Below are positions 3,477 to 52,319 of a DNA stretch of 52,319 nucleotides, piece by piece (positions within the stretch are counted from its first letter, which is position 1; each line of letters begins with the position of its first letter). This DNA comes from Patescibacteria group bacterium (GTDB lineage: Bacteria; Patescibacteriota; Minisyncoccia; Phycocordibacterales; CSBR16-193): assembly GCA_051745565.1 (NCBI GenBank), contig JBNJEF010000001.1, positions 1-52,319 on the forward strand, written 5' to 3'. The position numbers and the translations under genes are program-made. The notes beneath the pieces were generated by a model. It ran no database searches, had not been told where the DNA came from, and was given only the letters and a program-made list of their open reading frames with translations.

Positions 3477-5135
3477 TTAAGCGTTTAATTTTTCTTGTAA
3501 GCTCTTTGTAAGACCTTCAACGGTAAAGGGACGTGAGTCGTATTTTAATATACTGTCATGAACTTCTATTTGGTACTGTTTCATAACCTGTTCAAGTTGG
3601 CCGGTTGCGTTTAATTCTACACATATAATTCTCTCTACTCCTTCCAGCTCCTCTTTCATTCTTTTCTCAGGGAAGGGTTGCATTACTACGGGCTGGATAA
3701 GTTTTAATCCCATATCTCTACTTGCTCTTAAAACCGCTCCCTTGCTTGAGCCCCAAAAGATCAAGGCGGTTGATCCTTCTCCATAGACTTTCACAGTTTC
3801 CAGTATTTCCAGCTCTTCTCTTAGTTTGCCTCTCTTGCGTAGTCTTTTTTCCACCATTCTTTTCACTTCTTCGGGGTTCTCTGTGGCTATTCCGTCTTCC
3901 GTATGCTCGTAACTGGTGGCTTTGACAACGGCTTTACCTCCCGGGAATTTGATAGGGGAAATATCATCACCGCTGTATCTTTTGTATTCGGTGTTATCAG
4001 GATCAAGGTCTTCAACGATATCTTCTTTGTCTATATGGTATGCACCCTCAAGGCCGTAGGTGTTCTCGGATAGCTCTTTATCAAGAAGAATTATTGAGGG
4101 CATCTGATGCCTCCATGCTATATTCAGTGCTTTTCCGCCCCAGTAATAGGCTTCATCCGCATCTCCGGGTGCGACGACAAATCTTTCTATATCTCCATGT
4201 CCGGCATTAAGAGCAAACAGCAGATCCCCTTGAGCTTCGTAAGTGGGAACACCGCTTGCCGGACCCATTCTTTGACTTAGAGCTATTAAGATCGGAGTTT
4301 CTGACTGGGCAGAAAGGCTCAGGGCCTCGGTCATTAGAGCAAATCCTCCGCCGGAGGTGGATAGAAGTGTTCGTCTGCCTGAATAAGATGCGCCCAAAGA
4401 CATATTTATCACGGATATTTCGTTTTCCGGCTGACAGGTTCTTATCCCTTCTACTGATGTTAGAAAGCTGAAAACTCCGGTTGCAGGTGTCATGGGATAT
4501 GATATACAACATTCCAGTCCGGCTTTTATGGCTCCGAGGGCCACCGCTTTATTTCCGGAGACTAGCGGAAGAGGATCATTTCCTGTTTCGGCAACTTCTC
4601 CTTTTTTGTGAACTTTATTAAAAGCCGCTTCGGCTACCCTTAGATTGGCTTCGGTTTCTTTGTTGAGGTTTTTTAGAAGAACCTCTTTTGTTTTGTGCCA
4701 TTCTATACCCATTAGCTTGGAAAGGGCGGCGATCAGAGCGGTGTTTTTCATTAAGGATGTCCCTTTGGCTTCTTCTATTATTTTATCTGTTGGGACGGAA
4801 AGTGTTTCTATGTCCTCTTCTTGAGACATATCCATTTTGGTTGACTTTTGGTCGTATACCAAAACCCCGCCTTTTTTTATCCTGTCTTTATGCTTTAAAA
4901 TAGTGTCTTCGTTGAGAGCTAGAAGGAAGTCTATTTCTTCTTTCTTGGCTTCCACCTTCCGGTCTGAAGATATGGATATTTGAGAAAAATTGTGCCCTCC
5001 TTTTATGAGAGAGTGGTAGTCTTCGTGTATGAAAACCTTGAATCCGTAGGAATTGAAGATCTTGCCGATTATTAAACCGGCTTTCTTGGAGCCTTCTCCC
5101 GCGGCACCTCCGACAACTATTTGAAAGTTATCCAT
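3477..5135 (-). CDS. 2-oxoacid:ferredoxin oxidoreductase, fused gamma-alpha subunit
   Basis: The N-terminus MDNFQIVVGGAAGEG is gamma-like, followed by an alpha domain (GNKAVALGAIKAG...ISYPMTPATG). The longer track ORF (to 5270) would overlap the ferredoxin gene, so ATG 5135 is chosen. Confidence 0.9.
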   Translation of the reverse strand: MDNFQIVVGGAAGEGSKKAGLIIGKIFNSYGFKVFIHEDYHSLIKGGHNFSQISISSDRKVEAKKEEIDFLLALNEDTILKHKDRIKKGGVLVYDQKSTKMDMSQEEDIETLSVPTDKIIEEAKGTSLMKNTALIAALSKLMGIEWHKTKEVLLKNLNKETEANLRVAEAAFNKVHKKGEVAETGNDPLPLVSGNKAVALGAIKAGLECCISYPMTPATGVFSFLTSVEGIRTCQPENEISVINMSLGASYSGRRTLLSTSGGGFALMTEALSLSAQSETPILIALSQRMGPASGVPTYEAQGDLLFALNAGHGDIERFVVAPGDADEAYYWGGKALNIAWRHQMPSIILLDKELSENTYGLEGAYHIDKEDIVEDLDPDNTEYKRYSGDDISPIKFPGGKAVVKATSYEHTEDGIATENPEEVKRMVEKRLRKRGKLREELEILETVKVYGEGSTALIFWGSSKGAVLRASRDMGLKLIQPVVMQPFPEKRMKEELEGVERIICVELNATGQLEQVMKQYQIEVHDSILKYDSRPFTVEGLTKSLQEKLNA

Positions 5136-39358: not shown

Positions 39359-41656
39359 ATGGCTGAAAACAAAAAGAAATACGTGGACATATCCGATCCC
39401 AAGAATACCAAAGGATTTATAGAAAAGGTTCAAAAGCGTGACGGTACCGAGTGCTTCTTTGATCTAAACAGAATAGCCAATGCTATTTACAAAGCAATGA
39501 TATCGGCTGACGAGGGTTCCGACGTGGAAGCTAGTATGGTTGCCAACAAAGTCTTTGCCGATTTGGTACGCATAAGTAAAAAACACAAGAGTTTTGTTCC
39601 GACCGTTGAGGGAATACAGGACACGGTGGAAAAAGAACTCATTGTCGGGGATTACGTAAATTCGGCCAAAAAATATATTCTCTATCGGGAAAAGAGAGCA
39701 AATCTTCGCAAGCAAGGAATAAAGGTCCCGCAAAAAGTCAAAAAGCTTACAGAAGAGAGCCGTAAGTATTTACCCAACCCTCTCTCGGAGTTCATATATT
39801 ACAGAACCTATTCTCGATGGATGGAGGAAGAGGGAAGACGTGAAACCTGGGTGGAGACGGTTGATAGGTATATGAATTTCATGAAAGAGAATATCAAAGA
39901 CGCTTTAAGTAAAGAGGAGTATGAAGAGGTAAGAGAGGCCATTTTAAAACAGGAGGTAATGCCTTCAATGCGTTTGCTTTGGAGTGCCGGCAAAGCCGCT
40001 CGCAGAAGTAACGCCTGCGGTTATAACTGTTCGTTTATTGCGCCAAGAGAGCTTCGCGATTTCGGAGAGATAGTCTATCTCTCTATGTGCGGAGCGGGAG
40101 TCGGTTTTTCGGTTGAAAGTCAGCACGTTGAAGCTCTTCCCCAGATACAAAAACAGAGCGGAGAGAAGCTGTCTACTCATGTTATTGATGATAGTAAAGA
40201 GGGTTGGGCTGACGCTTTGATCATGGGGCTGGAAACTTGGTTTTCCGGAAAAGATATAGATTTTGATTATTCTCAAGTAAGACCCCAAGGTTCTAAACTC
40301 AAAACCATGGGAGGTAAAAGTTCCGGACCGGCACCACTGAAAGATCTATTAAGGTTCACCAGGGAAAAGATCCTCTCCCGACAGGGGAGGAGGCTCTCAA
40401 CTGTAGATACTCACGATATAATATGCAAGATAGGGCAGGTTGTTGTTGCTGGCGGAGTTCGCCGAAGCGCTCTCATCTCTCTTTCCGATCTTGATGATTC
40501 GGGTATGAGGGATTCCAAAAAAGGTCAGTTCTATGTAACCCATCCTCACCGTACTATGGCTAATAACTCGGCCGTTTATAACGAAAAACCGTCAGCAACC
40601 GACTTTCTTGATGAGTGGCTTGCTCTTGTAAGATCTCAGTCTGGAGAAAGGGGTATATTCAATCGCGGATCTCTGGAGAAGCAGTTGCCCAAAAGACGCT
40701 GGCAGACTTTTTCCGGTTATATTGACTACTCCGGTATAAATCCTTGCGGGGAAATAGTTCTTCGTTCCAAGCAGTTCTGTAATCTGTCCGAGGTGGTGGC
40801 CAGAGCGGGAGACACAAAGAAAGATCTTCTTAGAAAGATAAGGTTGGCGACTATATTGGGAACGTATCAGTCTTCACTTACCAATTTTGGCTATTTATCA
40901 AAAGAGTGGAAAAAGAACTGTGAAGAGGAACGTCTTTTGGGGGTTTCCGTTACGGGACAGTGGGATTCGGAGGAATCCAGGAGTGCCGAAGTGCTCAAGT
41001 CTCTCAAAAAGGAAGCCGTAAAAGTAAATCACGAGTTTGCTAAGAGACTCGGTATAAATCCGTCCACTGCCGTTACCTGTGTTAAACCCTCCGGTACCGT
41101 CTCTCAGTTAGTTGATGCTTCTTCCGGAATGCATCCGAGGTATGCCAAATACTATATTCGCAGGATAAGAATATCTTCAACCGATTCTCTTTTTCATATG
41201 CTAAGGGATCAAGGTGTTCCTTTCCATCCGGAGGTGGGTCAAAGTGTTGATAATGCCAATACTTATGTTTTGGAGTTCCCGGTTAAAGCCCCCGAAGGAG
41301 CCATAACCAGTGGCGATCTGACTTCGCGGGATCAGCTGGAGCACTGGAAGAAGGTAAAACTGAATTACACCGAACATAACCCTTCTGTAACCGTTACGGT
41401 GGGTGATAATGAGTGGATCTCTACTGCTCATTGGGTATATAACAACTGGGATATAGTGGGAGGTCTTTCTTTCTTGCCTAAAAGTGACCATGTTTACCAA
41501 CTGGCACCTTACGAAGAAATAGATGAAGAAAGATATAAAGAACTTTCAAAGAGGTTCACCGATATTGATTTCTCAAAGATAGTCACTTACGAAGGGGAAG
41601 ATAATACCGAAGGAGCCAAAGAGTACGCCTGTGTTGCCGGTGGCTGTCCGGTTTAA
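39359..41656 (+). CDS. nrdJ: class II (adenosylcobalamin-dependent) ribonucleotide reductase with N-terminal ATP-cone
   Basis: ATP-cone (VQKRDGTECFFDLNRIANAI), YYRTYSRW...ETWVETVDR characteristic of NrdJ-type enzymes, NPCGEI active-site Cys, and a CVAGGCPV C-terminus. Confidence 0.88.
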   Translation: MAENKKKYVDISDPKNTKGFIEKVQKRDGTECFFDLNRIANAIYKAMISADEGSDVEASMVANKVFADLVRISKKHKSFVPTVEGIQDTVEKELIVGDYVNSAKKYILYREKRANLRKQGIKVPQKVKKLTEESRKYLPNPLSEFIYYRTYSRWMEEEGRRETWVETVDRYMNFMKENIKDALSKEEYEEVREAILKQEVMPSMRLLWSAGKAARRSNACGYNCSFIAPRELRDFGEIVYLSMCGAGVGFSVESQHVEALPQIQKQSGEKLSTHVIDDSKEGWADALIMGLETWFSGKDIDFDYSQVRPQGSKLKTMGGKSSGPAPLKDLLRFTREKILSRQGRRLSTVDTHDIICKIGQVVVAGGVRRSALISLSDLDDSGMRDSKKGQFYVTHPHRTMANNSAVYNEKPSATDFLDEWLALVRSQSGERGIFNRGSLEKQLPKRRWQTFSGYIDYSGINPCGEIVLRSKQFCNLSEVVARAGDTKKDLLRKIRLATILGTYQSSLTNFGYLSKEWKKNCEEERLLGVSVTGQWDSEESRSAEVLKSLKKEAVKVNHEFAKRLGINPSTAVTCVKPSGTVSQLVDASSGMHPRYAKYYIRRIRISSTDSLFHMLRDQGVPFHPEVGQSVDNANTYVLEFPVKAPEGAITSGDLTSRDQLEHWKKVKLNYTEHNPSVTVTVGDNEWISTAHWVYNNWDIVGGLSFLPKSDHVYQLAPYEEIDEERYKELSKRFTDIDFSKIVTYEGEDNTEGAKEYACVAGGCPV

Positions 41657-41708: not shown

Positions 41709-41747
41709 TTACTTAAAGATCTCTACACTGTGATAAAATATTTAAAG

Positions 41748-43391
41748 ATGTTTATATCATTGCGGAAATATTTTAAAAAGACCATTCTTTCGGTATCTTT
41801 CTTAGCGGTTGTTTTCTTCGTATGTTTTCCTGCGACGGTTTTTTCGGTTGAACCCGTTTATCACAATTTTTCCTTAACGTATCCCATAGGTGAACTACAG
41901 CCTTCCGAAGGTGATATCATCGTCCGTAATAGGTATAAAAACACTTTCCGGATATCTTCAATAGAAGATAGCGCTGACGTTTTTGGAGTTGTCGCTTCTG
42001 ATGCGGCGTTGGTATTTAGAACAGAAGAACCGGATTCGGTTCCCATAATGAGATTCGGGCAGACCGCCGTTAACGTTATATTAAAAAATGGTGATATAGA
42101 AAGAGGAGATAATATAACCACTTCGGAAGTGATAGGACATGGACAGGCGGTTCAACCTTATCATAGATATACTTTAGGCGTTGCTCTGGAGGGTTTAAGT
42201 GAAGAAGATGCCAGTGAGGAGGTGGTTGGCCCGGACGGGGAGACCTACCCCTCCGGACAGGTAGTGGTGGATCTCAGGATAAGTTTTCATGGTTCGGGAG
42301 TTATAAATATCTCTCTGCAAGATATTCCCTCGCAGGCTGAACCGCTGGAGGTGGGCGCTATGTTTCGTCAAAACTTTCAGACCATGCGCCAGTTGGGGGA
42401 GGAAGTGACGGATCAAGCCCGCGATATTCTGGAGACAGAGGCCGGATCCATAGCTTCTAGATTCATTGAAACGGGAGGTGCGGTTACGGGTGCAATGATA
42501 TCCTTCGGGGCGCTTTTTTTGAGTCCGGTAACTGTTTTTGAGGTTTTTGCTTTACCTTTTAGAATATGGGCACTGTTTCTTGCTCTGTTTGGTATCAAAA
42601 GAAGATCCAGACCGTGGGGAGTGGTGTATGACAGCGTGACCAAACAACCCATTGATCCGGCTTATGTAATACTGGAAGACGATAAGGGTAATGAAGTAAA
42701 GATGTCCATAACGGATATTGACGGTCGCTATGGCTTTTTGGTAGATCCGGGTAAGTATAAAATGAAAGCTAACAAGACCAACTACATCTTTCCTTCCGAG
42801 AAACTGAAGGGGAGAAGGTCGGATGTTATCCATAACAATCTTTATTTCGGGGAGACCTTTGAGGTTAATAAAAAAAATGCCGTGATTGATAAGAATATTC
42901 CCATGGATCCGCAGGATTTTGACTGGAACGAGTTTACCAAATTGAATAAAAAGATCTTGACCTATTATTCCTATGCCGATCTTTTCAAGGCTTTTATTTT
43001 TCAGTGGCTCTTTTATGCCGGTTTTATTGTTTCTCTGGTTTCCGTTTTCTTAGTGCCTGATACTTACAGCTACGTTATATTAGGGGTTTATCTTTTTCTT
43101 TTCTTTTTGCGTATCGTGGGACTCAAGCCAAGGCGCTATGGAAAGGTCGTGGAAGAAGAAACGAATACCCCTCTATCTTATGCTATTGTTCATATATGTC
43201 TTAAAAGATCGGGAAGGGAGGTTTCCACCTCTGTCTGTGATGCTTATGGGCGTTACTTTGCTCTTGCCAGTAATGGGGAGTATTACGTGAAAATAGACAA
43301 GAAAAAAGGAGAGGAGGATTATGAGAATGTTTTCACCTCTGAACCTTTTGAGGTAAAAGGGGGAGTGATAAAAAGAACTTTCAAGGTGTGA
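41748..43391 (+). CDS. multi-pass membrane protein with N-terminal secreted domain and two carboxypeptidase-regulatory-like (transthyretin-like) domains, hypothetical
   Basis: Signal/anchor ILSVSFLAVVFFVCFPATVFS. The N-domain is paralogous to the next gene. VVYDSVTKQPIDPAYVILEDDKGNEV...DGRYGF and a second ...CDAYGRYFALASNGEYYV module each follow TM pairs. The track start at 41730 is GTG. Confidence 0.7.
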   Translation: MFISLRKYFKKTILSVSFLAVVFFVCFPATVFSVEPVYHNFSLTYPIGELQPSEGDIIVRNRYKNTFRISSIEDSADVFGVVASDAALVFRTEEPDSVPIMRFGQTAVNVILKNGDIERGDNITTSEVIGHGQAVQPYHRYTLGVALEGLSEEDASEEVVGPDGETYPSGQVVVDLRISFHGSGVINISLQDIPSQAEPLEVGAMFRQNFQTMRQLGEEVTDQARDILETEAGSIASRFIETGGAVTGAMISFGALFLSPVTVFEVFALPFRIWALFLALFGIKRRSRPWGVVYDSVTKQPIDPAYVILEDDKGNEVKMSITDIDGRYGFLVDPGKYKMKANKTNYIFPSEKLKGRRSDVIHNNLYFGETFEVNKKNAVIDKNIPMDPQDFDWNEFTKLNKKILTYYSYADLFKAFIFQWLFYAGFIVSLVSVFLVPDTYSYVILGVYLFLFFLRIVGLKPRRYGKVVEEETNTPLSYAIVHICLKRSGREVSTSVCDAYGRYFALASNGEYYVKIDKKKGEEDYENVFTSEPFEVKGGVIKRTFKV

Positions 43392-43507
43392 TCTTATTTC
43401 TCATTAATAGACATTTTCCCCGATTTACTTTGTTCTTTTTATGTTAAACTGTTCATATGACCGTTGTCGCGGTCGGTTTTGTGCAAATTTTTTTAAACTT
43501 CTCTTCA

Positions 43508-44344
43508 ATGAAAATGAGTTCACGTTTATTGATCCTTACCCTTTCTTTCCTTTTACTGTCAACTCCCGGACTCTTCTTCGGTATTGCTTCGGCTCAGATA
43601 GGTCAGGGTATTGAATCCGAGGAAGAAGATATATCTCCGGGGACTATCATATCCAGAGACCCCAGAAGTAACTATTTTCATCTCTCTAGAGGTGTCAGTG
43701 ATCCCAATATCTTTGGAGTTGTCGTGGAAAAACCTATTGCCAATATTCGTCCTGACGAGGAAAGTGATATATCGGTTTTAAGAACGGGAGAAGTAGAGGT
43801 CAGGGTCATATTAAAAGAGAATAGTATAGAAACGGGTGACTATATAACGACCTCGGAAGTTGAGGGATTGGGAATGCGTGCCAGCGATGATCATTCCAAT
43901 GTTTTAGGGGTAGCTCTTGAGAACTTTACTTCGGAGGATGCAGAGTCATCAGTTGAATATCAAGAGGAAGACGTGCCGATGGGACTTGTTCTTGTTGATC
44001 TTCAGATAGGAAACCGGCAGAGAGAAGAGGGCTCTGTACCTCCCGGAGAGGATAATAATGGTTTAACCCCTTTAGGGTCACAAGTTGAACACTATTTGGC
44101 TATGATAGCTCGGTATCTAGCCGCGGCTTTAGTAGCAATTTCGGCTCTGTATCTTTCTTTCAGGTTCTTTAAATCAAATGTGGCCGGAGGTTTATCCGCT
44201 CTGGGTCGCAATCCCCTGGCGCGTCAGTCCATACAGAAAATGATGCTTTTTAATATGTTCCTGGTCATAATTATAAGCGTGGGAGGTCTTCTGTTATCCG
44301 CTCTTATTTTGCTTATTCCGGTTTTCATTAGCAGGATAATATGA
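43508..44344 (+). CDS. secreted-domain protein (paralog of the preceding N-domain) ending in a two-helix membrane hairpin
   Basis: Signal peptide MKMSSRLLILTLSFLLLSTPGLFFGIASAQ. GVVVEKP...TGDYITTSEVEGLG...LGVALENFTSEDAE aligns with GVVASDA...RGDNITTSEVIGHG...LGVALEGLSEEDAS of the upstream protein. The C-terminal hairpin has a GRNPLARQSI loop. Confidence 0.7.
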   Translation: MKMSSRLLILTLSFLLLSTPGLFFGIASAQIGQGIESEEEDISPGTIISRDPRSNYFHLSRGVSDPNIFGVVVEKPIANIRPDEESDISVLRTGEVEVRVILKENSIETGDYITTSEVEGLGMRASDDHSNVLGVALENFTSEDAESSVEYQEEDVPMGLVLVDLQIGNRQREEGSVPPGEDNNGLTPLGSQVEHYLAMIARYLAAALVAISALYLSFRFFKSNVAGGLSALGRNPLARQSIQKMMLFNMFLVIIISVGGLLLSALILLIPVFISRII

Positions 44345-44388
44345 CCTTAATTCATAATATTGGTTAGTAGTAAGTAATTATTTACATT

Positions 44389-45351
44389 ATGTTTCAAGAA
44401 ATAGATCCCTTTTTTATACTCTTAATTTCTCTTATCGCCGCGGTGCTCTTGCTTTTACCTACCACTGTTTGGCTCTTTATACTTTTAAAAAAACAGAATA
44501 AAGAGTATAGGGAGGTAATAAGAGAGGCTGATTCACGTGCCGAGGATATAATCAGTAAAGCCAAGGCAAGATCAAGAGAGATATTAACAGAGGCGGACAA
44601 GGAAGCCGGTCGATACCTATCGGAAAGAAAAACAGAAATGGATTCAATGCACACTGAACTTGTAGATCGATTGGATAATTTAAAAGGTGAAGCTCAAAAG
44701 AGCTTTTCCGAGAGTGTAAAAAAAGTTGATTCCTTTTCAGAGGAGATATCCGAGGAAGCCAAAAAAGAGATACGATCTTCTGTACAAAAAGCCAACATCT
44801 CCGTTGGCGAGGTCATAGATGGTATAAAAGAGCAAATAGAAAAAGATATGAAGAAAACGAGCGAGAAGATACCGGAGATAGAAAAACAGATCAGGGATCT
44901 TGAGGCTCTGAACGAAAATGCCAAAAAGAGCTTTTCTGAAAGCTCGCAGAAATTTATTAAGATCTCCAATGAAGCTTCAGAGGAGGTACGTGGGCATTTG
45001 AACGCCTCCGCTAAAAAGGCGGATGAGCTTATGGGAAGTTTTACAGAGGAGGCCCGAAAAAAGATTAAGGAAGATATTAGCAAGACCGCCGAGGAAATGT
45101 CTTCAAACAGAGAAGAAATGGTCCGTCGCTTTAAAGAGGCCCTCAACAGTGAAATGGAAAAAGCCAGAAAGGAGTTGCAAGATTACAGAAAAGACAGATT
45201 AAGGGTGGTGGATGAGCATATCATCACTTTGGTTGAGGAAACGGCGGCCATAGCCCTCAATACCAGACTCTCCAAGGATGACCATAGAGAGGTGGTAAAA
45301 AACGCTTTGGAAGAAGCCAAAAAAAGAGGAGCTTTTGATAAATCCCGTTAA
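44389..45351 (+). CDS. atpF: F-type ATP synthase subunit b-like stator stalk, double length (320 aa)
   Basis: A single N-terminal TM segment followed by a long charged coiled coil. It occupies the position immediately before the delta/alpha genes and contains an internal duplication of about 76 aa. Confidence 0.7.
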   Translation: MFQEIDPFFILLISLIAAVLLLLPTTVWLFILLKKQNKEYREVIREADSRAEDIISKAKARSREILTEADKEAGRYLSERKTEMDSMHTELVDRLDNLKGEAQKSFSESVKKVDSFSEEISEEAKKEIRSSVQKANISVGEVIDGIKEQIEKDMKKTSEKIPEIEKQIRDLEALNENAKKSFSESSQKFIKISNEASEEVRGHLNASAKKADELMGSFTEEARKKIKEDISKTAEEMSSNREEMVRRFKEALNSEMEKARKELQDYRKDRLRVVDEHIITLVEETAAIALNTRLSKDDHREVVKNALEEAKKRGAFDKSR

Positions 45352-45354
45352 TTT

Positions 45355-45882
45355 ATGGATCTTTTTAAGGTCATTTTCTCCAATACCTATACCTATACGG
45401 ACTTTCGCTATCGTCTTTCGGTTCTGAGGGAATTTGTGGAATATCTCTTATACACCAAAGAGGAGGGAAGTCTTTCCGTTATGGAGAAATTTGACCGTTT
45501 CTCCGGAGAAAAGGGAATGAGTTATGAGGATATAAAATTTTTCAAGGAATGGGGAGAAAGTGTTTTTCGTAAAGCAGCTTTTGAGGGCGATATATATAAG
45601 ACTCTTGAGCATATAGAAGAGAGATTCAAAGAGAGTCCTCTTTTTATACTTAGAGCACCGGTCATCTTTTCAAAAGAAGATCAGAGATACTTCGGAAAGT
45701 GGGTGAGAGAAAACGTTGACGGTCGCGCCTTTATAAAAATAAAAGTTGATGAAAGCATAAATGCCGGCTGTGTATTCAGCTGGAGTAATGATCAGTACGA
45801 TATGAGTTTTGAAAGATTAAGAAAAGAGAGATACGATAAGATATCTGAACGGATCAGAGAGGTTTTAGATGCCAAAATGTAG
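45355..45882 (+). CDS. atpH: F-type ATP synthase subunit delta (OSCP-like), divergent
   Basis: 175 aa. The C-terminal IKIKVDESINAGCVFSWSNDQYDMSFERLRKE fits the OSCP pattern (vD.sliGG..v..gd...D.S). It occupies the operon position between b and alpha. Confidence 0.65.
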   Translation: MDLFKVIFSNTYTYTDFRYRLSVLREFVEYLLYTKEEGSLSVMEKFDRFSGEKGMSYEDIKFFKEWGESVFRKAAFEGDIYKTLEHIEERFKESPLFILRAPVIFSKEDQRYFGKWVRENVDGRAFIKIKVDESINAGCVFSWSNDQYDMSFERLRKERYDKISERIREVLDAKM

Positions 45883-47459: not shown

Positions 47460-49699
<2,240 letters not shown>

Positions 49700-49718
49700 T
49701 AGATCATACATTTGAAAT

Positions 49719-49740
49719 CGGCAAATTTGTCGTTTTTTTA
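49719..49740 (+). terminator. short hairpin plus T7 tract after atpD
   Basis: cggcaaatttgtcg is a near-palindrome followed by ttttttt. The stem is weak. Confidence 0.4.
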
Positions 49741-49773
49741 TTTGCCACAAATATAAAATCGTTTCCAAATTAG

Positions 49774-49814
49774 TGGCTCATCTCGGCCGTATCTCGGTTA
49801 TATCTGTTTATTTT
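49774..49814. repeat. left arm of 41-bp inverted repeat pair
   Basis: tggctcatctcggccgtatctcggttatatctgtttatttt matches the reverse complement of 50538-50578 at 35 of 41 positions. It contains iterated ATCTCGG units. Confidence 0.85.
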
Positions 49815-50133
49815 TAATTATAAATTAAAAGTTATGATCATCCTGAATAGTGTAACTTCAATAACCTGTAGTTGAATTGAACAATGTTGTGCTTTATGAG
49901 GTCACGGCCTCTCTCTGACTCTTAAACATTCCATCGGGAGTAGCGTCCCATCTTTTCTCTTTGGTTTTGTAATGTGTTTAATAATTATGAAGCTTCTCGT
50001 AAGTTCAGGCTTATTTTGAGTATCCCCCGGTTTAATGGAGTCTGCAAAAATAAGCAGAAATGATATGACTAATATTAGTATGGAACTTATAGCATCATAA
50101 CGATGCCAGTCTATTAGTTTTAAGTAGGATTTT

Positions 50134-50415
50134 TTATACGTTTGCGTATATTTTTATCTCGTTCTCTTTTGCGTACAGGAGAGAGCGAGGAAAAGTGAAT
50201 TTCTTCTCCTCTTTACTTTCAGTTTTAACCACTATAGGGGTGTCTTTAAGTATGGTTATAAAATTGGCGTGTTGAGGTAGTACATCAAATGGTCCACTGG
50301 TATTTTCGGCAGAAATGGATTGTGCGTAACCTTCCCATACCACTTCACCCAAAGAGATGATGCGCACGCTTAAAAGGGTTTGATCCTTTTCTTTAGACTC
50401 TTCGTTTTTATTCAT
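50134..50415 (-). CDS. atpC: F-type ATP synthase subunit epsilon, beta-sandwich domain only, encoded antisense to the rest of the operon
   Basis: LSVRIISLGEVVWEGYAQSISAENTSGPFDVLPQHANFITILKDTPIVV aligns with the epsilon N-terminal domain (G.fgiLpgHapl.t.L). There is no C-terminal helical hairpin. The track start at 50424 is TTG; ATG 50415 is used. Confidence 0.75.
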   Translation of the reverse strand: MNKNEESKEKDQTLLSVRIISLGEVVWEGYAQSISAENTSGPFDVLPQHANFITILKDTPIVVKTESKEEKKFTFPRSLLYAKENEIKIYANV

Positions 50416-50500
50416 ATATAGCAATTATATCATCTCAAACTATCTTTTTTTGGGTGTTACACACACTATCCACAGTAGCGGTTTCTCCTCTATCTCTGTC

Positions 50501-50509
50501 TGTTATAAT
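50501..50509 (+). promoter_or_regulatory. extended -10 promoter element facing the downstream large gene
   Basis: TGtTATAAT lies about 30 bp inside the right inverted-repeat arm and 100 nt upstream of ATG 50609. The -35 region is weak. AT-rich background lowers its specificity. Confidence 0.35.
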
Positions 50510-50537
50510 TAGATAACGAGACCAAAGAGAGGTACGT

Positions 50538-50578
50538 AAAATAATCCGAGATAACCGAGATACCGCCTAGATGAGACA
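50538..50578. repeat. right arm of 41-bp inverted repeat pair
   Basis: aaaataatccgagataaccgagataccgcctagatgagaca contains iterated CCGAGAT units. It is the partner of 49774-49814. Confidence 0.85.
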
Positions 50579-50608
50579 TTTTTTATATCTCGCTTATATA
50601 TCATCCTA

Positions 50609-52319
50609 ATGGAGGAGGCAAACGAAAGAAAATATATTCCAACACGGGAAGCTTCCAGGCTTACCGGATACACAACCGATTACATAGGTCAGCTTTGTCG
50701 TTCAGGTTTGGTGCTTTGTCGTAAGGATGTAAAGGGTTGGTTAGTGGATAGAGATGATCTTCTAAGATACAAAGAAGGCATATCCGCCGGTATACCCCAA
50801 AGTGAGAATACGCCTTTTAATATCAAAGTTCCTTATACAACAAATCAAACGGATAGCTTTGCTAAAACAGAAAAAAAAGGATCTGATCAGATCTCTTCTG
50901 ATCCTGTTTCTATTTCGTCTGACAATATAACTCAATCCGAAACTGCACCTTATTTGGGAATGGTAAGCAAAAAAGGATCCGGGGTTAATTTAATGGAAAA
51001 AGAAGAGAAGGAAAACGAGGTTTCTGAGGTCCACGATCAAGAAGGAGAAGTCAGTGAAAATGATCGTGTTAAAGATAAGTTCTTTTCCAAATTGGCCGTC
51101 ACAGTTATTTTATTTCTACTGTTCTTTTTGTCATCTTTCGGTATCTTGCAAGCCATCGGCTCTACGGAGGCAGGTGGCAGAGTGATATCAAATGCCACCG
51201 AGACTGCCGGGTTAATCGCTTCGTCCATTCTTGGCGATACCGAAGTTAAGAAGTATCTTCCCAATTTTATGTTGGCCCAGACAGGATCGGATTCTGAAAC
51301 CGAAGATACTTCGCAGGAAGTTGAAGCAGATCTGGAATCAATACCTATGGATCAGTTTGAAGGGGCAAGAGAGGTCCCTGCCGGGGATGCTTTTCCCAGA
51401 ATAGCCGAGGGTCTAGGTCTTTTGGAGATAAACGTTGACACACTCTTAAGCGAGGATCTGGAGGTGGCGGGAGATTCCACTTTCCAAGCGGTTGATATTC
51501 TGGGTCCTTTTAGTGTTGAGGGTCTTTTTACAGCCGGCGGAGGTTTGAATGTTATCGGTCCGGCCGATCTAGAAACTCTATCAGTTTCCGGTGAGAGTGA
51601 ATTTGTCGGTTTAACTACCATAAATGATCTCAATGTTGAAGGAATCGCCGAATTTTCAAACTCCGCTTCGTTCGCTGATATAACTGTTACTGAACCCAGT
51701 GAATTTATGGCTACTACCAGATTTTCAGAATTGGAAGTTACCGGCACCAGCACCTTTACTGGAACCAGCACTTTCCAAGCTCCTTCTATGTTCACGGAAC
51801 TAACCGTTTCAACTTCTACTGAGCTTATGGGAACAACAACGGTACTTGGTTCCAGTCGTTTCTTTGAAAGTTTAAGGGCTACCGGAGGAGTTTTAACAGG
51901 CGGCGCTGATATAGATCTTCAAGGAGGAAGACTACTTGGAACTGATCTTGTTCAGAATGTGGAAGCGGGATCGCAGATAAGGATAAATGAAGTTGAAGAA
52001 GGAGTTTTTCGTATAAGTTCTACTGCCGGAAGTGGTGCTCCTACTGCCGGTGAAGACATTGCGGTTGATGGCAGAGAAGTCTCTAATATTTCCACCATAG
52101 GATCAGTTGCGGAAAGAACATCAGGAATTTCTTGGGATGACGGTCGTGAGCGTATGACCATAGGAGGAACTTCAACACTGGATCACGGTTTGGACATAGA
52201 AGGAACTCTCTCCGTGACAGGCACCACCACCTTAGCCGGAGTGGAATACAGCTGGCCGGGAGATGCCGGTCTTGAAGATCAAGTTTTGGTTACTGACGGC
52301 AATGGTGATCTTTCGTGGA
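50609..52319 (+). CDS. large membrane-anchored protein: N-terminal HTH (MerR/excisionase-like), one TM, and an extracytoplasmic repetitive beta-helix/fibre-like region (partial, continues beyond window)
   Basis: Manual translation gives 570 codons with no stop to the window end. The ORF is absent from the track because it lacks a stop. HTH: YIPTREASRLTGYTTDYIGQLCRSG. TM: LAVTVILFLLFFLSSFGIL (about 51080-51160). After that come degenerate repeats of roughly 14-15 aa rich in G/T/S/V (LEVAGDSTFQAV, LSVSGESEFVGL, LEVTGTSTFTGTSTF) and YSWPGDAGLEDQVLVTDGNGDLSW. Confidence 0.8.
   Translation, partial: MEEANERKYIPTREASRLTGYTTDYIGQLCRSGLVLCRKDVKGWLVDRDDLLRYKEGISAGIPQSENTPFNIKVPYTTNQTDSFAKTEKKGSDQISSDPVSISSDNITQSETAPYLGMVSKKGSGVNLMEKEEKENEVSEVHDQEGEVSENDRVKDKFFSKLAVTVILFLLFFLSSFGILQAIGSTEAGGRVISNATETAGLIASSILGDTEVKKYLPNFMLAQTGSDSETEDTSQEVEADLESIPMDQFEGAREVPAGDAFPRIAEGLGLLEINVDTLLSEDLEVAGDSTFQAVDILGPFSVEGLFTAGGGLNVIGPADLETLSVSGESEFVGLTTINDLNVEGIAEFSNSASFADITVTEPSEFMATTRFSELEVTGTSTFTGTSTFQAPSMFTELTVSTSTELMGTTTVLGSSRFFESLRATGGVLTGGADIDLQGGRLLGTDLVQNVEAGSQIRINEVEEGVFRISSTAGSGAPTAGEDIAVDGREVSNISTIGSVAERTSGISWDDGRERMTIGGTSTLDHGLDIEGTLSVTGTTTLAGVEYSWPGDAGLEDQVLVTDGNGDLSW

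Follow-up and report, generated by a model that had tools for sequence, protein, structure and literature searches.

The atpC locus and its inverted repeat

The DNA discussed here is a stretch of 52,319 nucleotides from a Patescibacteria group bacterium (contig JBNJEF010000001.1 of assembly GCA_051745565.1; "the window" in the following). Near its right end, atpC, the gene for the epsilon subunit of ATP synthase, lies on the minus strand between the convergent atpD and the 5′ part of a large, divergently oriented gene for a putative surface protein with an N-terminal helix-turn-helix (HTH) domain [Table 1]. The segment carrying atpC and the promoter of the surface-protein gene is bracketed by two arms: 49774-49814 and the reverse complement of 50538-50578 match at 35 of 41 positions, with 723 bp between them, and a repeat search extends the pair to 64 nt at 73% identity (49751-49814/50538-50601). 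In 200 dinucleotide-preserving shuffles of the region 49000-51500, the best 41-nt inverted repeat had on average 25.4 matches (standard deviation 0.9) and at most 28. An earlier reading of the sequence alone (the original prediction) had described an imperfect 41-bp inverted repeat, built from iterated CCGAGAT units, that encloses atpC and an outward-facing extended -10 element. All of this holds: the repeat is real, each arm consists of three direct heptamers, and the bracketing of atpC and the -10 element is conserved in the clade described below. The same reading took the locus for a phase-variable promoter switch, a claim to which we return after discussing the arms, the relatives and the promoters.

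Table 1. Features of the atpC locus, with positions in the window
Feature	Position	Strand	Remarks
atpD (beta subunit)	48281-49699	+	Convergent with atpC; terminator-like hairpin and T-run at 49719-49739
Distal (left) arm	49774-49814	+	Three direct heptamers, pointing inward
Distal-arm units	U1 ATCTCGG 49780-49786; U2 ATCTCGG 49791-49797; U3 ATATCTG 49800-49806	+	
Non-conserved spacer	49815-50133	.	Without open reading frame or recognisable RNA
atpC (ATP synthase epsilon subunit)	50134-50415	-	Beta-sandwich only; PF02823, E 1.6e-12
Extended -10 of atpC, TGATATAAT	50424-50432	-	About 8 nt upstream of the ATG at 50415; conserved block ATTATATCAT
DnaA-box-like motif CTATCCACA (consensus TTATCCACA)	50466-50474	+	About 30 nt upstream of the -10; conserved in the clade
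Extended -10 of the HTH/surface-protein gene, TGTTATAAT	50501-50509	+	TnTGTTAnAAT (50499-50509) invariant in seven lineages
Proximal (right) arm	50538-50578	-	Between the conserved promoter and the start of the HTH gene
Proximal-arm units (+ strand reading)	U3 CCGAGAT 50546-50552; U2 CCGAGAT 50555-50561; U1 CCTAGAT 50566-50572		
HTH/surface-protein gene, 5′ part	50609-52319, runs off the window	+	HTH_17-like N-terminal domain

Structure of the heptamer arrays

Reading inward, each array has the order U1, 4-nt spacer, U2, 2-nt spacer and U3, with ATCTCGG as the consensus heptamer. Fourteen arms from seven lineages were compared. Their array consensus is tATCTCGGC..tATCTCGGttaT.TCgG, and the start-to-start spacing of the units is 11 and 9 bp in 13 of the 14 arms, the U1-U2 distance being 10 in the remaining arm. 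This spacing corresponds to about one helical turn, and the three units span roughly two. The middle unit is ATCTCGG in all arms except one; variant units are ATATCGG, ATCTAGG, and ATCTCTG. The heptamers are conserved, while the inter-unit spacers vary independently in the two arms, and no internal dyad symmetry was found in any of the 14. The combination of conserved, phased heptamers and freely varying spacers suggests that a putative protein binds the arrays cooperatively as double-stranded DNA.

The two arms of one genome are about as similar to each other (identity 0.68) as are arms between genomes (0.64), and in the six lineages compared the stretches that are identical between the two arms of one genome range from 13 down to 7 bp. 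Base pairing between the arms, or their co-evolution, was considered and rejected on the basis of these identities and because spacers and variant units change independently. The proximal arm is identical in L001 (L numbers are our handles for related loci), which derives from an independent sample of the window strain and reads straight through the arm.

A 25-nt core of the arm occurs at two places in the window, i.e., the two arms, where none would be expected by chance, and no further array with at least two heptamer units is present in these 52 kb. We therefore see no sign of the dispersed-repeat origin that the original prediction had raised as a possible objection, the arms being unique in the window. 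A dispersed repeat or a larger regulon was likewise rejected: other matches to TATCTCGG in the window are single and lie inside coding regions, a scan of GTDB genomes gave chance-level numbers beyond the atpC loci of the clade, and a scan of viral contigs gave two single matches.

A similar-looking motif was noted in a dispersed intergenic repeat of about 100 nt (L021, L030, L062, L073, L081 (Azospirillum sp. CAG:239 bin), L023, L088 (Bacteroidaceae bin)). This repeat, which represents an uncharacterised family, starts with ATCTCGG-N4-ATCTCGG-N2-GTATCG, followed by two copies of CCCTACCATTA and by GGGTTTTGTAAGG-like repeats. It is located among housekeeping genes of the Bacteroidales type and shares nothing else with the arrays; we judged the likeness to be coincidental.

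Conservation and gene order in relatives

Data from NCBI, ENA, Logan, GTDB, and JGI yielded relatives with an atpC 57-86% identical to that of the window. They represent eight species-level lineages (window/L001, L002, L003, L004, L005, L041, L104/L193/L194, and L195; "the clade"), and two of these relatives are labelled Candidatus Campbellbacteria. In all eight lineages atpC is divergent from an HTH_17-like gene and has one inverted heptamer array on each side, and in the six whose contigs reach atpD this gene is convergent with atpC. Orthologous distal arms are present in L002, L003, L004, L005, L041, L104, and L195, and the clade contigs that reach the HTH gene all have the same proximal junction. 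A single orientation is seen in the window and in 16 of 16 related loci with both atpC and atpD, as judged from consensus assemblies of six of the eight lineages. Among these loci, the L005 species is represented by nine contigs, each from a different sample, and the L041 species by six contigs. A look-up with the exact atpD protein gave no additional contigs of the window strain.

Outside the clade the picture is different. The original prediction had taken atpD-atpC as the canonical order, and a synteny comparison bears this out: atpC follows atpD on the same strand in 73 of 73 distant loci with both genes (atpC 35-51% identical). Since these distant relatives all share this arrangement, the inversion of atpC is an old trait that is fixed in this one clade, within which atpD has diverged to 74% amino acid identity.

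When loci from different species are aligned, only the promoter/atpC block and an island of 45-75 nt at the distal arm align. The 320-bp spacer of the window is about 50% identical, with many gaps, to that of the closest relative, L002, the atpD of which is 95% identical. The spacer DNA cannot be aligned even with this relative while both arms are kept, and the arms are therefore under purifying selection; by the same comparison, 49815-50133 is unconstrained spacer. Measured from the atpC stop codon, the distal arm begins at a distance of 10 nt in L104 and L195, 122 nt in L004, and 320-890 nt in the window, L002, L003, L005, and L041. Hence, the variable DNA is found sometimes inside and sometimes outside the array pair, and the interior measures 440-1340 bp.

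Arrays of the ATCTCGG type are absent from the 73 loci with canonical order, with the exception of one short array each in L131 and L132. In L131, the interval from atpC to the HTH gene has five ATCTCGG units, including the palindrome TATCTCGGATGTCCGAGATA, clustered in about 120 bp, and there is no arm between atpD and atpC. The presence of these units without an inverted partner arm indicates that the heptamer has a role independent of inversion. The L131 stretch 3760-4050 contains this cluster with a perfect 8+4+8 palindrome, followed by about 150 nt and by a hairpin like that of an intrinsic terminator with a T8 run (4027-4049); a small transcript could be encoded here.

Additional, direct-oriented copies occur in two lineages. 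All L005-type contigs that reach it carry a degenerate third array in direct orientation. L193 (GCA_964559575.1) has a tandem duplicate (2255-2990) of box, atpC promoter, atpC, and distal arm, with two apparently identical atpC genes. The same-species loci L194 and L104 have a single copy and the gamma gene of L193 is split, so an assembly or sequencing artefact is possible.

Several contigs of the L005 species end close to the distal arm. L007, L187, and L189, for which samples and assemblers differ, share an end point 40 nt outside the arm, and the MAG contig L075, which approaches from the opposite side, ends 53 nt inside it, leaving a shared island of about 120 nt (L005 ~3553-3673). Both kinds of contig read through the whole distal arm.

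The divergent promoters

The extended -10 element that the original prediction had placed at 50501-50509, facing the surface-protein gene, is conserved in the seven-lineage alignment, although a simple -35/-10 scan gave no full sigma-70 match at this position. The order of conserved blocks in these lineages is the atpC -10, TTATCCACA, TnTGTTAnAAT, a purine-rich block, the proximal array, a short T-run, and the ATG. Both divergent genes keep their extended -10, and the proximal array lies between promoter and ATG in all seven. Transcription is inferred to start near 50516, about 7 nt past the -10; the leader would then measure about 92 nt and contain the proximal array at approximately +29 to +62. 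No structure could be assigned to this leader: the RNAalifold consensus is empty, and z-scores for single sequences range from -2.1 to +0.3.

The DnaA-box-like motif is shared more widely than the arrays. In the clade as well as in relatives with canonical order (L107, L137, L166, and L178), the TTATCCACA box precedes the -10 of the HTH gene by 30-45 nt, and no perfect copy was found elsewhere in the window. It could be a DnaA-responsive site or the site of an activator. A replication origin (oriC) was rejected, given that the motif is single and that the GC skew has no sign change near 50 kb. The surface-gene promoter and the box have the same orientation to the HTH gene in the clade as in the canonical-order relatives. 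As the promoter is thus ancestral and keeps its ancestral orientation, the arms are not the breakpoints of the evolutionary inversion, and an inversion from arm to arm could not have given rise to the present layout. The ancestral event affected only atpC, and one of its breakpoints lay between the two promoters.

On the other strand, the distance from the atpC extended -10 to the ATG is 7-13 nt in the lineages checked, and no Shine-Dalgarno sequence is present (window 50413-50432). With a spacing of only about 8 nt in the window, the leader of the atpC mRNA is probably absent or very short.

The epsilon subunit, the spacer and the atp operon

The atpC product comprises 93 residues from the ATG at 50415 (the mechanically called reading frame starts at a TTG at 50424 and gives 96 residues) and is 100% identical to NCBI protein P0001. 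The original prediction had described the epsilon subunit as truncated to its beta-sandwich domain. The PF02823 beta-sandwich is indeed the sole match; however, this feature is not special to the locus, as the 73 canonical-order relatives match residues 15-93 of the 93-residue query with no sign of a C-terminal extension.

The gap between atpC and the distal arm contains no open reading frame (ORF) longer than 29 residues, in line with what had been noted from the sequence. Rfam searches (at the gathering threshold and at E<=10) and ARAGORN gave nothing relevant in the window or in four related loci. A conserved small ORF or non-coding RNA in the gap was rejected, since L002 has no equivalent of the six-frame peptides and its DNA is as divergent as described above.

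Of the long ORFs in the part of the window beyond 13.6 kb (13600-52319), atpC alone is on the minus strand. The GC skew, positive across this region, has its change of sign near 14 kb, which is also where the genes change orientation. Upstream of atpA, the region 43457-45882 contains three ORFs (295, 320, and 175 residues) without a Pfam match to ATP synthase; the 320-residue ORF has sub-threshold matches to coiled-coil families, e.g., Apolipoprotein. No gene for an a or c subunit was recognised next to the atp operon in the window or in the relatives.

The HTH/surface-protein gene

The product of the gene starting at 50609 begins with the HTH_17-like domain, which is followed by a transmembrane-like hydrophobic segment at approximately residues 160-185 and by a long region rich in Thr, Gly, and Ser. 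The HTH_17 score is 19.9 bits in the window, which is below threshold, and reaches 32.9 bits for the L005 orthologue and 26.7 bits for that of L041.

In every lineage the assemblies end 1.7-2.3 kb (about 570-770 codons) into this gene, irrespective of assembler and sample (the window, L001, L003-L008, L041, and L190-L195). No tandem repeat is visible in the available part. Either repeats or hypervariability within the population just beyond this point may break assemblies of the surface gene systematically.

A fixed module or an invertible switch?

With a single orientation in every public assembly and arms that resemble protein-binding sites, the locus more likely represents a fixed regulatory module than a flipping switch. 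The explanation we favour, to which we give about an even chance of being correct, is that an ancient, fixed inversion of atpC is combined with two operator-like heptamer arrays bound by a putative DNA-binding protein. In this scenario, an inversion in the ancestor of a Campbellbacteria-like clade of Patescibacteria would have taken atpC out of the atp operon. The gene would have acquired a promoter of its own, arranged back to back with that of the HTH-anchored surface gene, which is ancestral. Each of the two divergent transcription units would then be bounded on its outside by the same cis element, i.e., three direct heptamers about one helical turn apart, along which a protein may bind cooperatively on one face of the helix. 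Protein bound to the proximal array, in the leader of the surface gene, would repress or block transcription. Downstream of atpC, the same protein might at the distal array stop read-through into the convergent atpD; alternatively, the distal array might pair with the proximal one and loop out the 0.44-1.3-kb segment with the divergent promoters. Both roles are conjectural. A candidate for the binding protein is the adjacent membrane protein itself, the cytoplasmic HTH_17 (Xis/MerR-like) N-terminal domain of which would make it an autoregulator.

Several observations weigh against this explanation. The HTH genes of several relatives with canonical order have no arrays, which makes the idea of the HTH_17 protein as autoregulator a weak one, and the HTH domain of L131 is no closer to that of the window than are those of array-free relatives. 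The binding protein is only a candidate, and neither a gene nor a conserved RNA is associated with the distal array, such that its function as roadblock or loop anchor stays a conjecture. Moreover, inverted sites around an outward promoter beside a surface-protein gene have the look of an invertible element, or "inverton", and assemblies report the majority orientation only.

An active inverton would require a serine or tyrosine recombinase, encoded elsewhere, that flips the ~720-bp segment at the arms. A flip would uncouple the TGTTATAAT promoter from the surface gene (phase-OFF) and leave atpC co-directional with atpD; for this strain the predicted left junction after flipping is GGCTCATCTCGGCCGTATCTCGGTTATCTCGGATTATTTTACG, the hybrid arms assuming a crossover in GTATCTCGGTTAT. 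The statistical significance of the arms and their conservation in eight lineages fit such a model, as does the conserved outward promoter, which lies beside a large surface-protein gene and about 30 bp inside the proximal arm. In five of the seven aligned lineages the two arms have exactly the same 7-bp middle unit, and crossover could take place in a shared core of 7-13 bp; an interior varying between 440 and 1340 bp would be tolerable. The breaks of several L005-species contigs within about 50 nt of the distal arm can also be read in its favour, but these lie 40-53 nt beyond the arm on both sides, which fits strain variation around a conserved island rather than a crossover branch. Against flipping stands the one orientation in the window and in each of the 16 related loci. 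The arms, moreover, are direct repeats, whereas hix, fim, and Mpi-type sites typically have a dyad-symmetric core, and the arms of one genome have not been homogenised (0.68 versus 0.64). With an active enzyme, deletion between direct copies would be expected, and the persistence of direct-oriented arrays (the third array of L005 and the duplicate of L193), unresolved by recombination, therefore argues against switching. Nor would the flipped state be a clean OFF, as read-through from atpC would then face the surface gene.

The original prediction had noted that the window encodes no recombinase, and this agrees with our scan: the 30 ORFs up to 39186 and the atp genes, housekeeping genes throughout, gave no match to a recombinase domain, and none was found in flanks of about 10 kb in the relatives. 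The scan did not take in the ORFs 39359-41656 and 41730-43391, which correspond by synteny to genes for a ribonucleotide reductase and a CarboxypepD_reg protein in relatives. On balance, we consider an active inverton unlikely. An inverton that flips rarely, with a distant recombinase and a new type of arm, would couple phase variation of the surface protein to re-orientation of atpC and escape consensus assemblies; we regard this variant as rather improbable. The claim of the original prediction that the locus is a working phase-variable switch is accordingly not supported so far, considering the single orientation, the lack of a nearby recombinase and of a dyad core, the L131 motif, and the ancestral orientation of the promoter. 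Flipping the segment from arm to arm would not restore the ancestral state, since the arms are not the breakpoints of the evolutionary inversion.

The arrays might instead act on the sense strand. Both divergent transcripts (the surface-gene leader and the atpC 3′ region) would then need to carry CCGAGAU in the same sense, either for recognition by an RNA-binding protein or as a polar transcription stop that depends on a protein; this would account for the mirror orientation of the arrays and for the T-runs. The two arrays indeed point the same way when followed outward from the divergent promoters, most arms have a T-rich run downstream of U1, and the distal array lies in a terminator position, 10-122 nt past the atpC stop, in L104, L195, and L004. 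In L132, two CCTAGAT units are present in the same sense between a promoter-like site and the HTH gene. The strict 11/9-bp phasing, however, suggests recognition of double-stranded DNA, the leader has no consensus structure and no Rfam match, most units of L131 have the opposite sense relative to the HTH gene, and in five lineages the distal array is separated from atpC by 320-890 nt of unconserved DNA. We find this alternative distinctly unlikely. Mobile-element ends (terminal and subterminal repeats like those of a transposon or a miniature inverted-repeat transposable element) that carried or captured atpC are a very improbable source of the arms. Terminal inverted repeats made of short iterated units are typical of transposon ends, and the dispersed Bacteroidales-like gut repeat happens to carry ATCTCGG twice, but it is unrelated. 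No transposase and no target-site duplication or other direct repeat flanking the arms was found; in the two genomes of the clade that GTDB contains, the arms occur only at the atpC locus, and they are absent from viral contigs. Their position is syntenic in eight lineages, while the spacers inside and outside vary in length. We consider a mobile-element origin effectively refuted.

Comparison with known systems and implications

The locus shares with invertible promoter switches (E. coli fimS with FimB/FimE, Salmonella hin/hix, and the B. fragilis Mpi polysaccharide promoters) the inverted repeats around a short segment and the outward promoter beside a surface gene. It differs from them in having one orientation and no recombinase in reach, as far as the window and the flanks were scanned. 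Its arms are triple direct heptamers and not sites with a dyad-symmetric core, it encloses a housekeeping gene with a promoter of its own, and the surface promoter has the ancestral orientation.

With helically phased direct-repeat operators such as the PhoB boxes, the OmpR F-sites, the omega heptads of pSM19035, and the Xis/Cox boxes, the arrays share 7-bp units at intervals of 9-11 bp, located at a promoter or in a leader and conserved amid drifting spacers and flanks. PhoB boxes consist of 7-bp repeats with a 4-bp spacer, Xis and Cox boxes are bound by excisionase-type HTH proteins, and in PhoB boxes, omega heptads, and Xis and Cox boxes phased direct repeats are combined with cooperative binding on one face. 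The L131 units occur both in direct and in inverted orientation, as do the heptads of the omega repressor. In contrast to these operators, the locus has two mirror arrays 0.44-1.3 kb apart around divergent promoters, and its binder is a candidate only. We know of no described regulator that the ATCTCGG heptamer matches.

The adjacent protein resembles the membrane-anchored one-component regulators ToxR and CadC in its N-terminal DNA-binding-type domain, single hydrophobic segment, and large C-terminal part, and it is encoded next to a direct-repeat array in its own leader. Unlike these regulators, it has an HTH_17 (Xis/MerR-like) domain and not an OmpR-type winged helix, and its external part is very large and fibre-like; autoregulation is a conjecture.

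Almost nothing is known about gene regulation in Patescibacteria (the Candidate Phyla Radiation, CPR), which are ultra-small bacteria, mostly uncultured episymbionts, and in which giant surface proteins are suspected to be involved in host contact. In the literature searched, no paper was seen to connect invertons to Patescibacteria or to deal with the CPR epsilon subunit; if both orientations were ever seen in reads, this locus would be the first inverton in the phylum within that literature. The removal of atpC from the atp operon is old and defines the clade, and is therefore useful as a synteny marker. The two arrays are a new, conserved pair of cis elements in a phylum whose regulation is essentially unknown. 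They give it a sharply defined element of about 27 bp, selected in eight lineages, in the leader of a surface-protein gene that itself starts with a DNA-binding-type domain.

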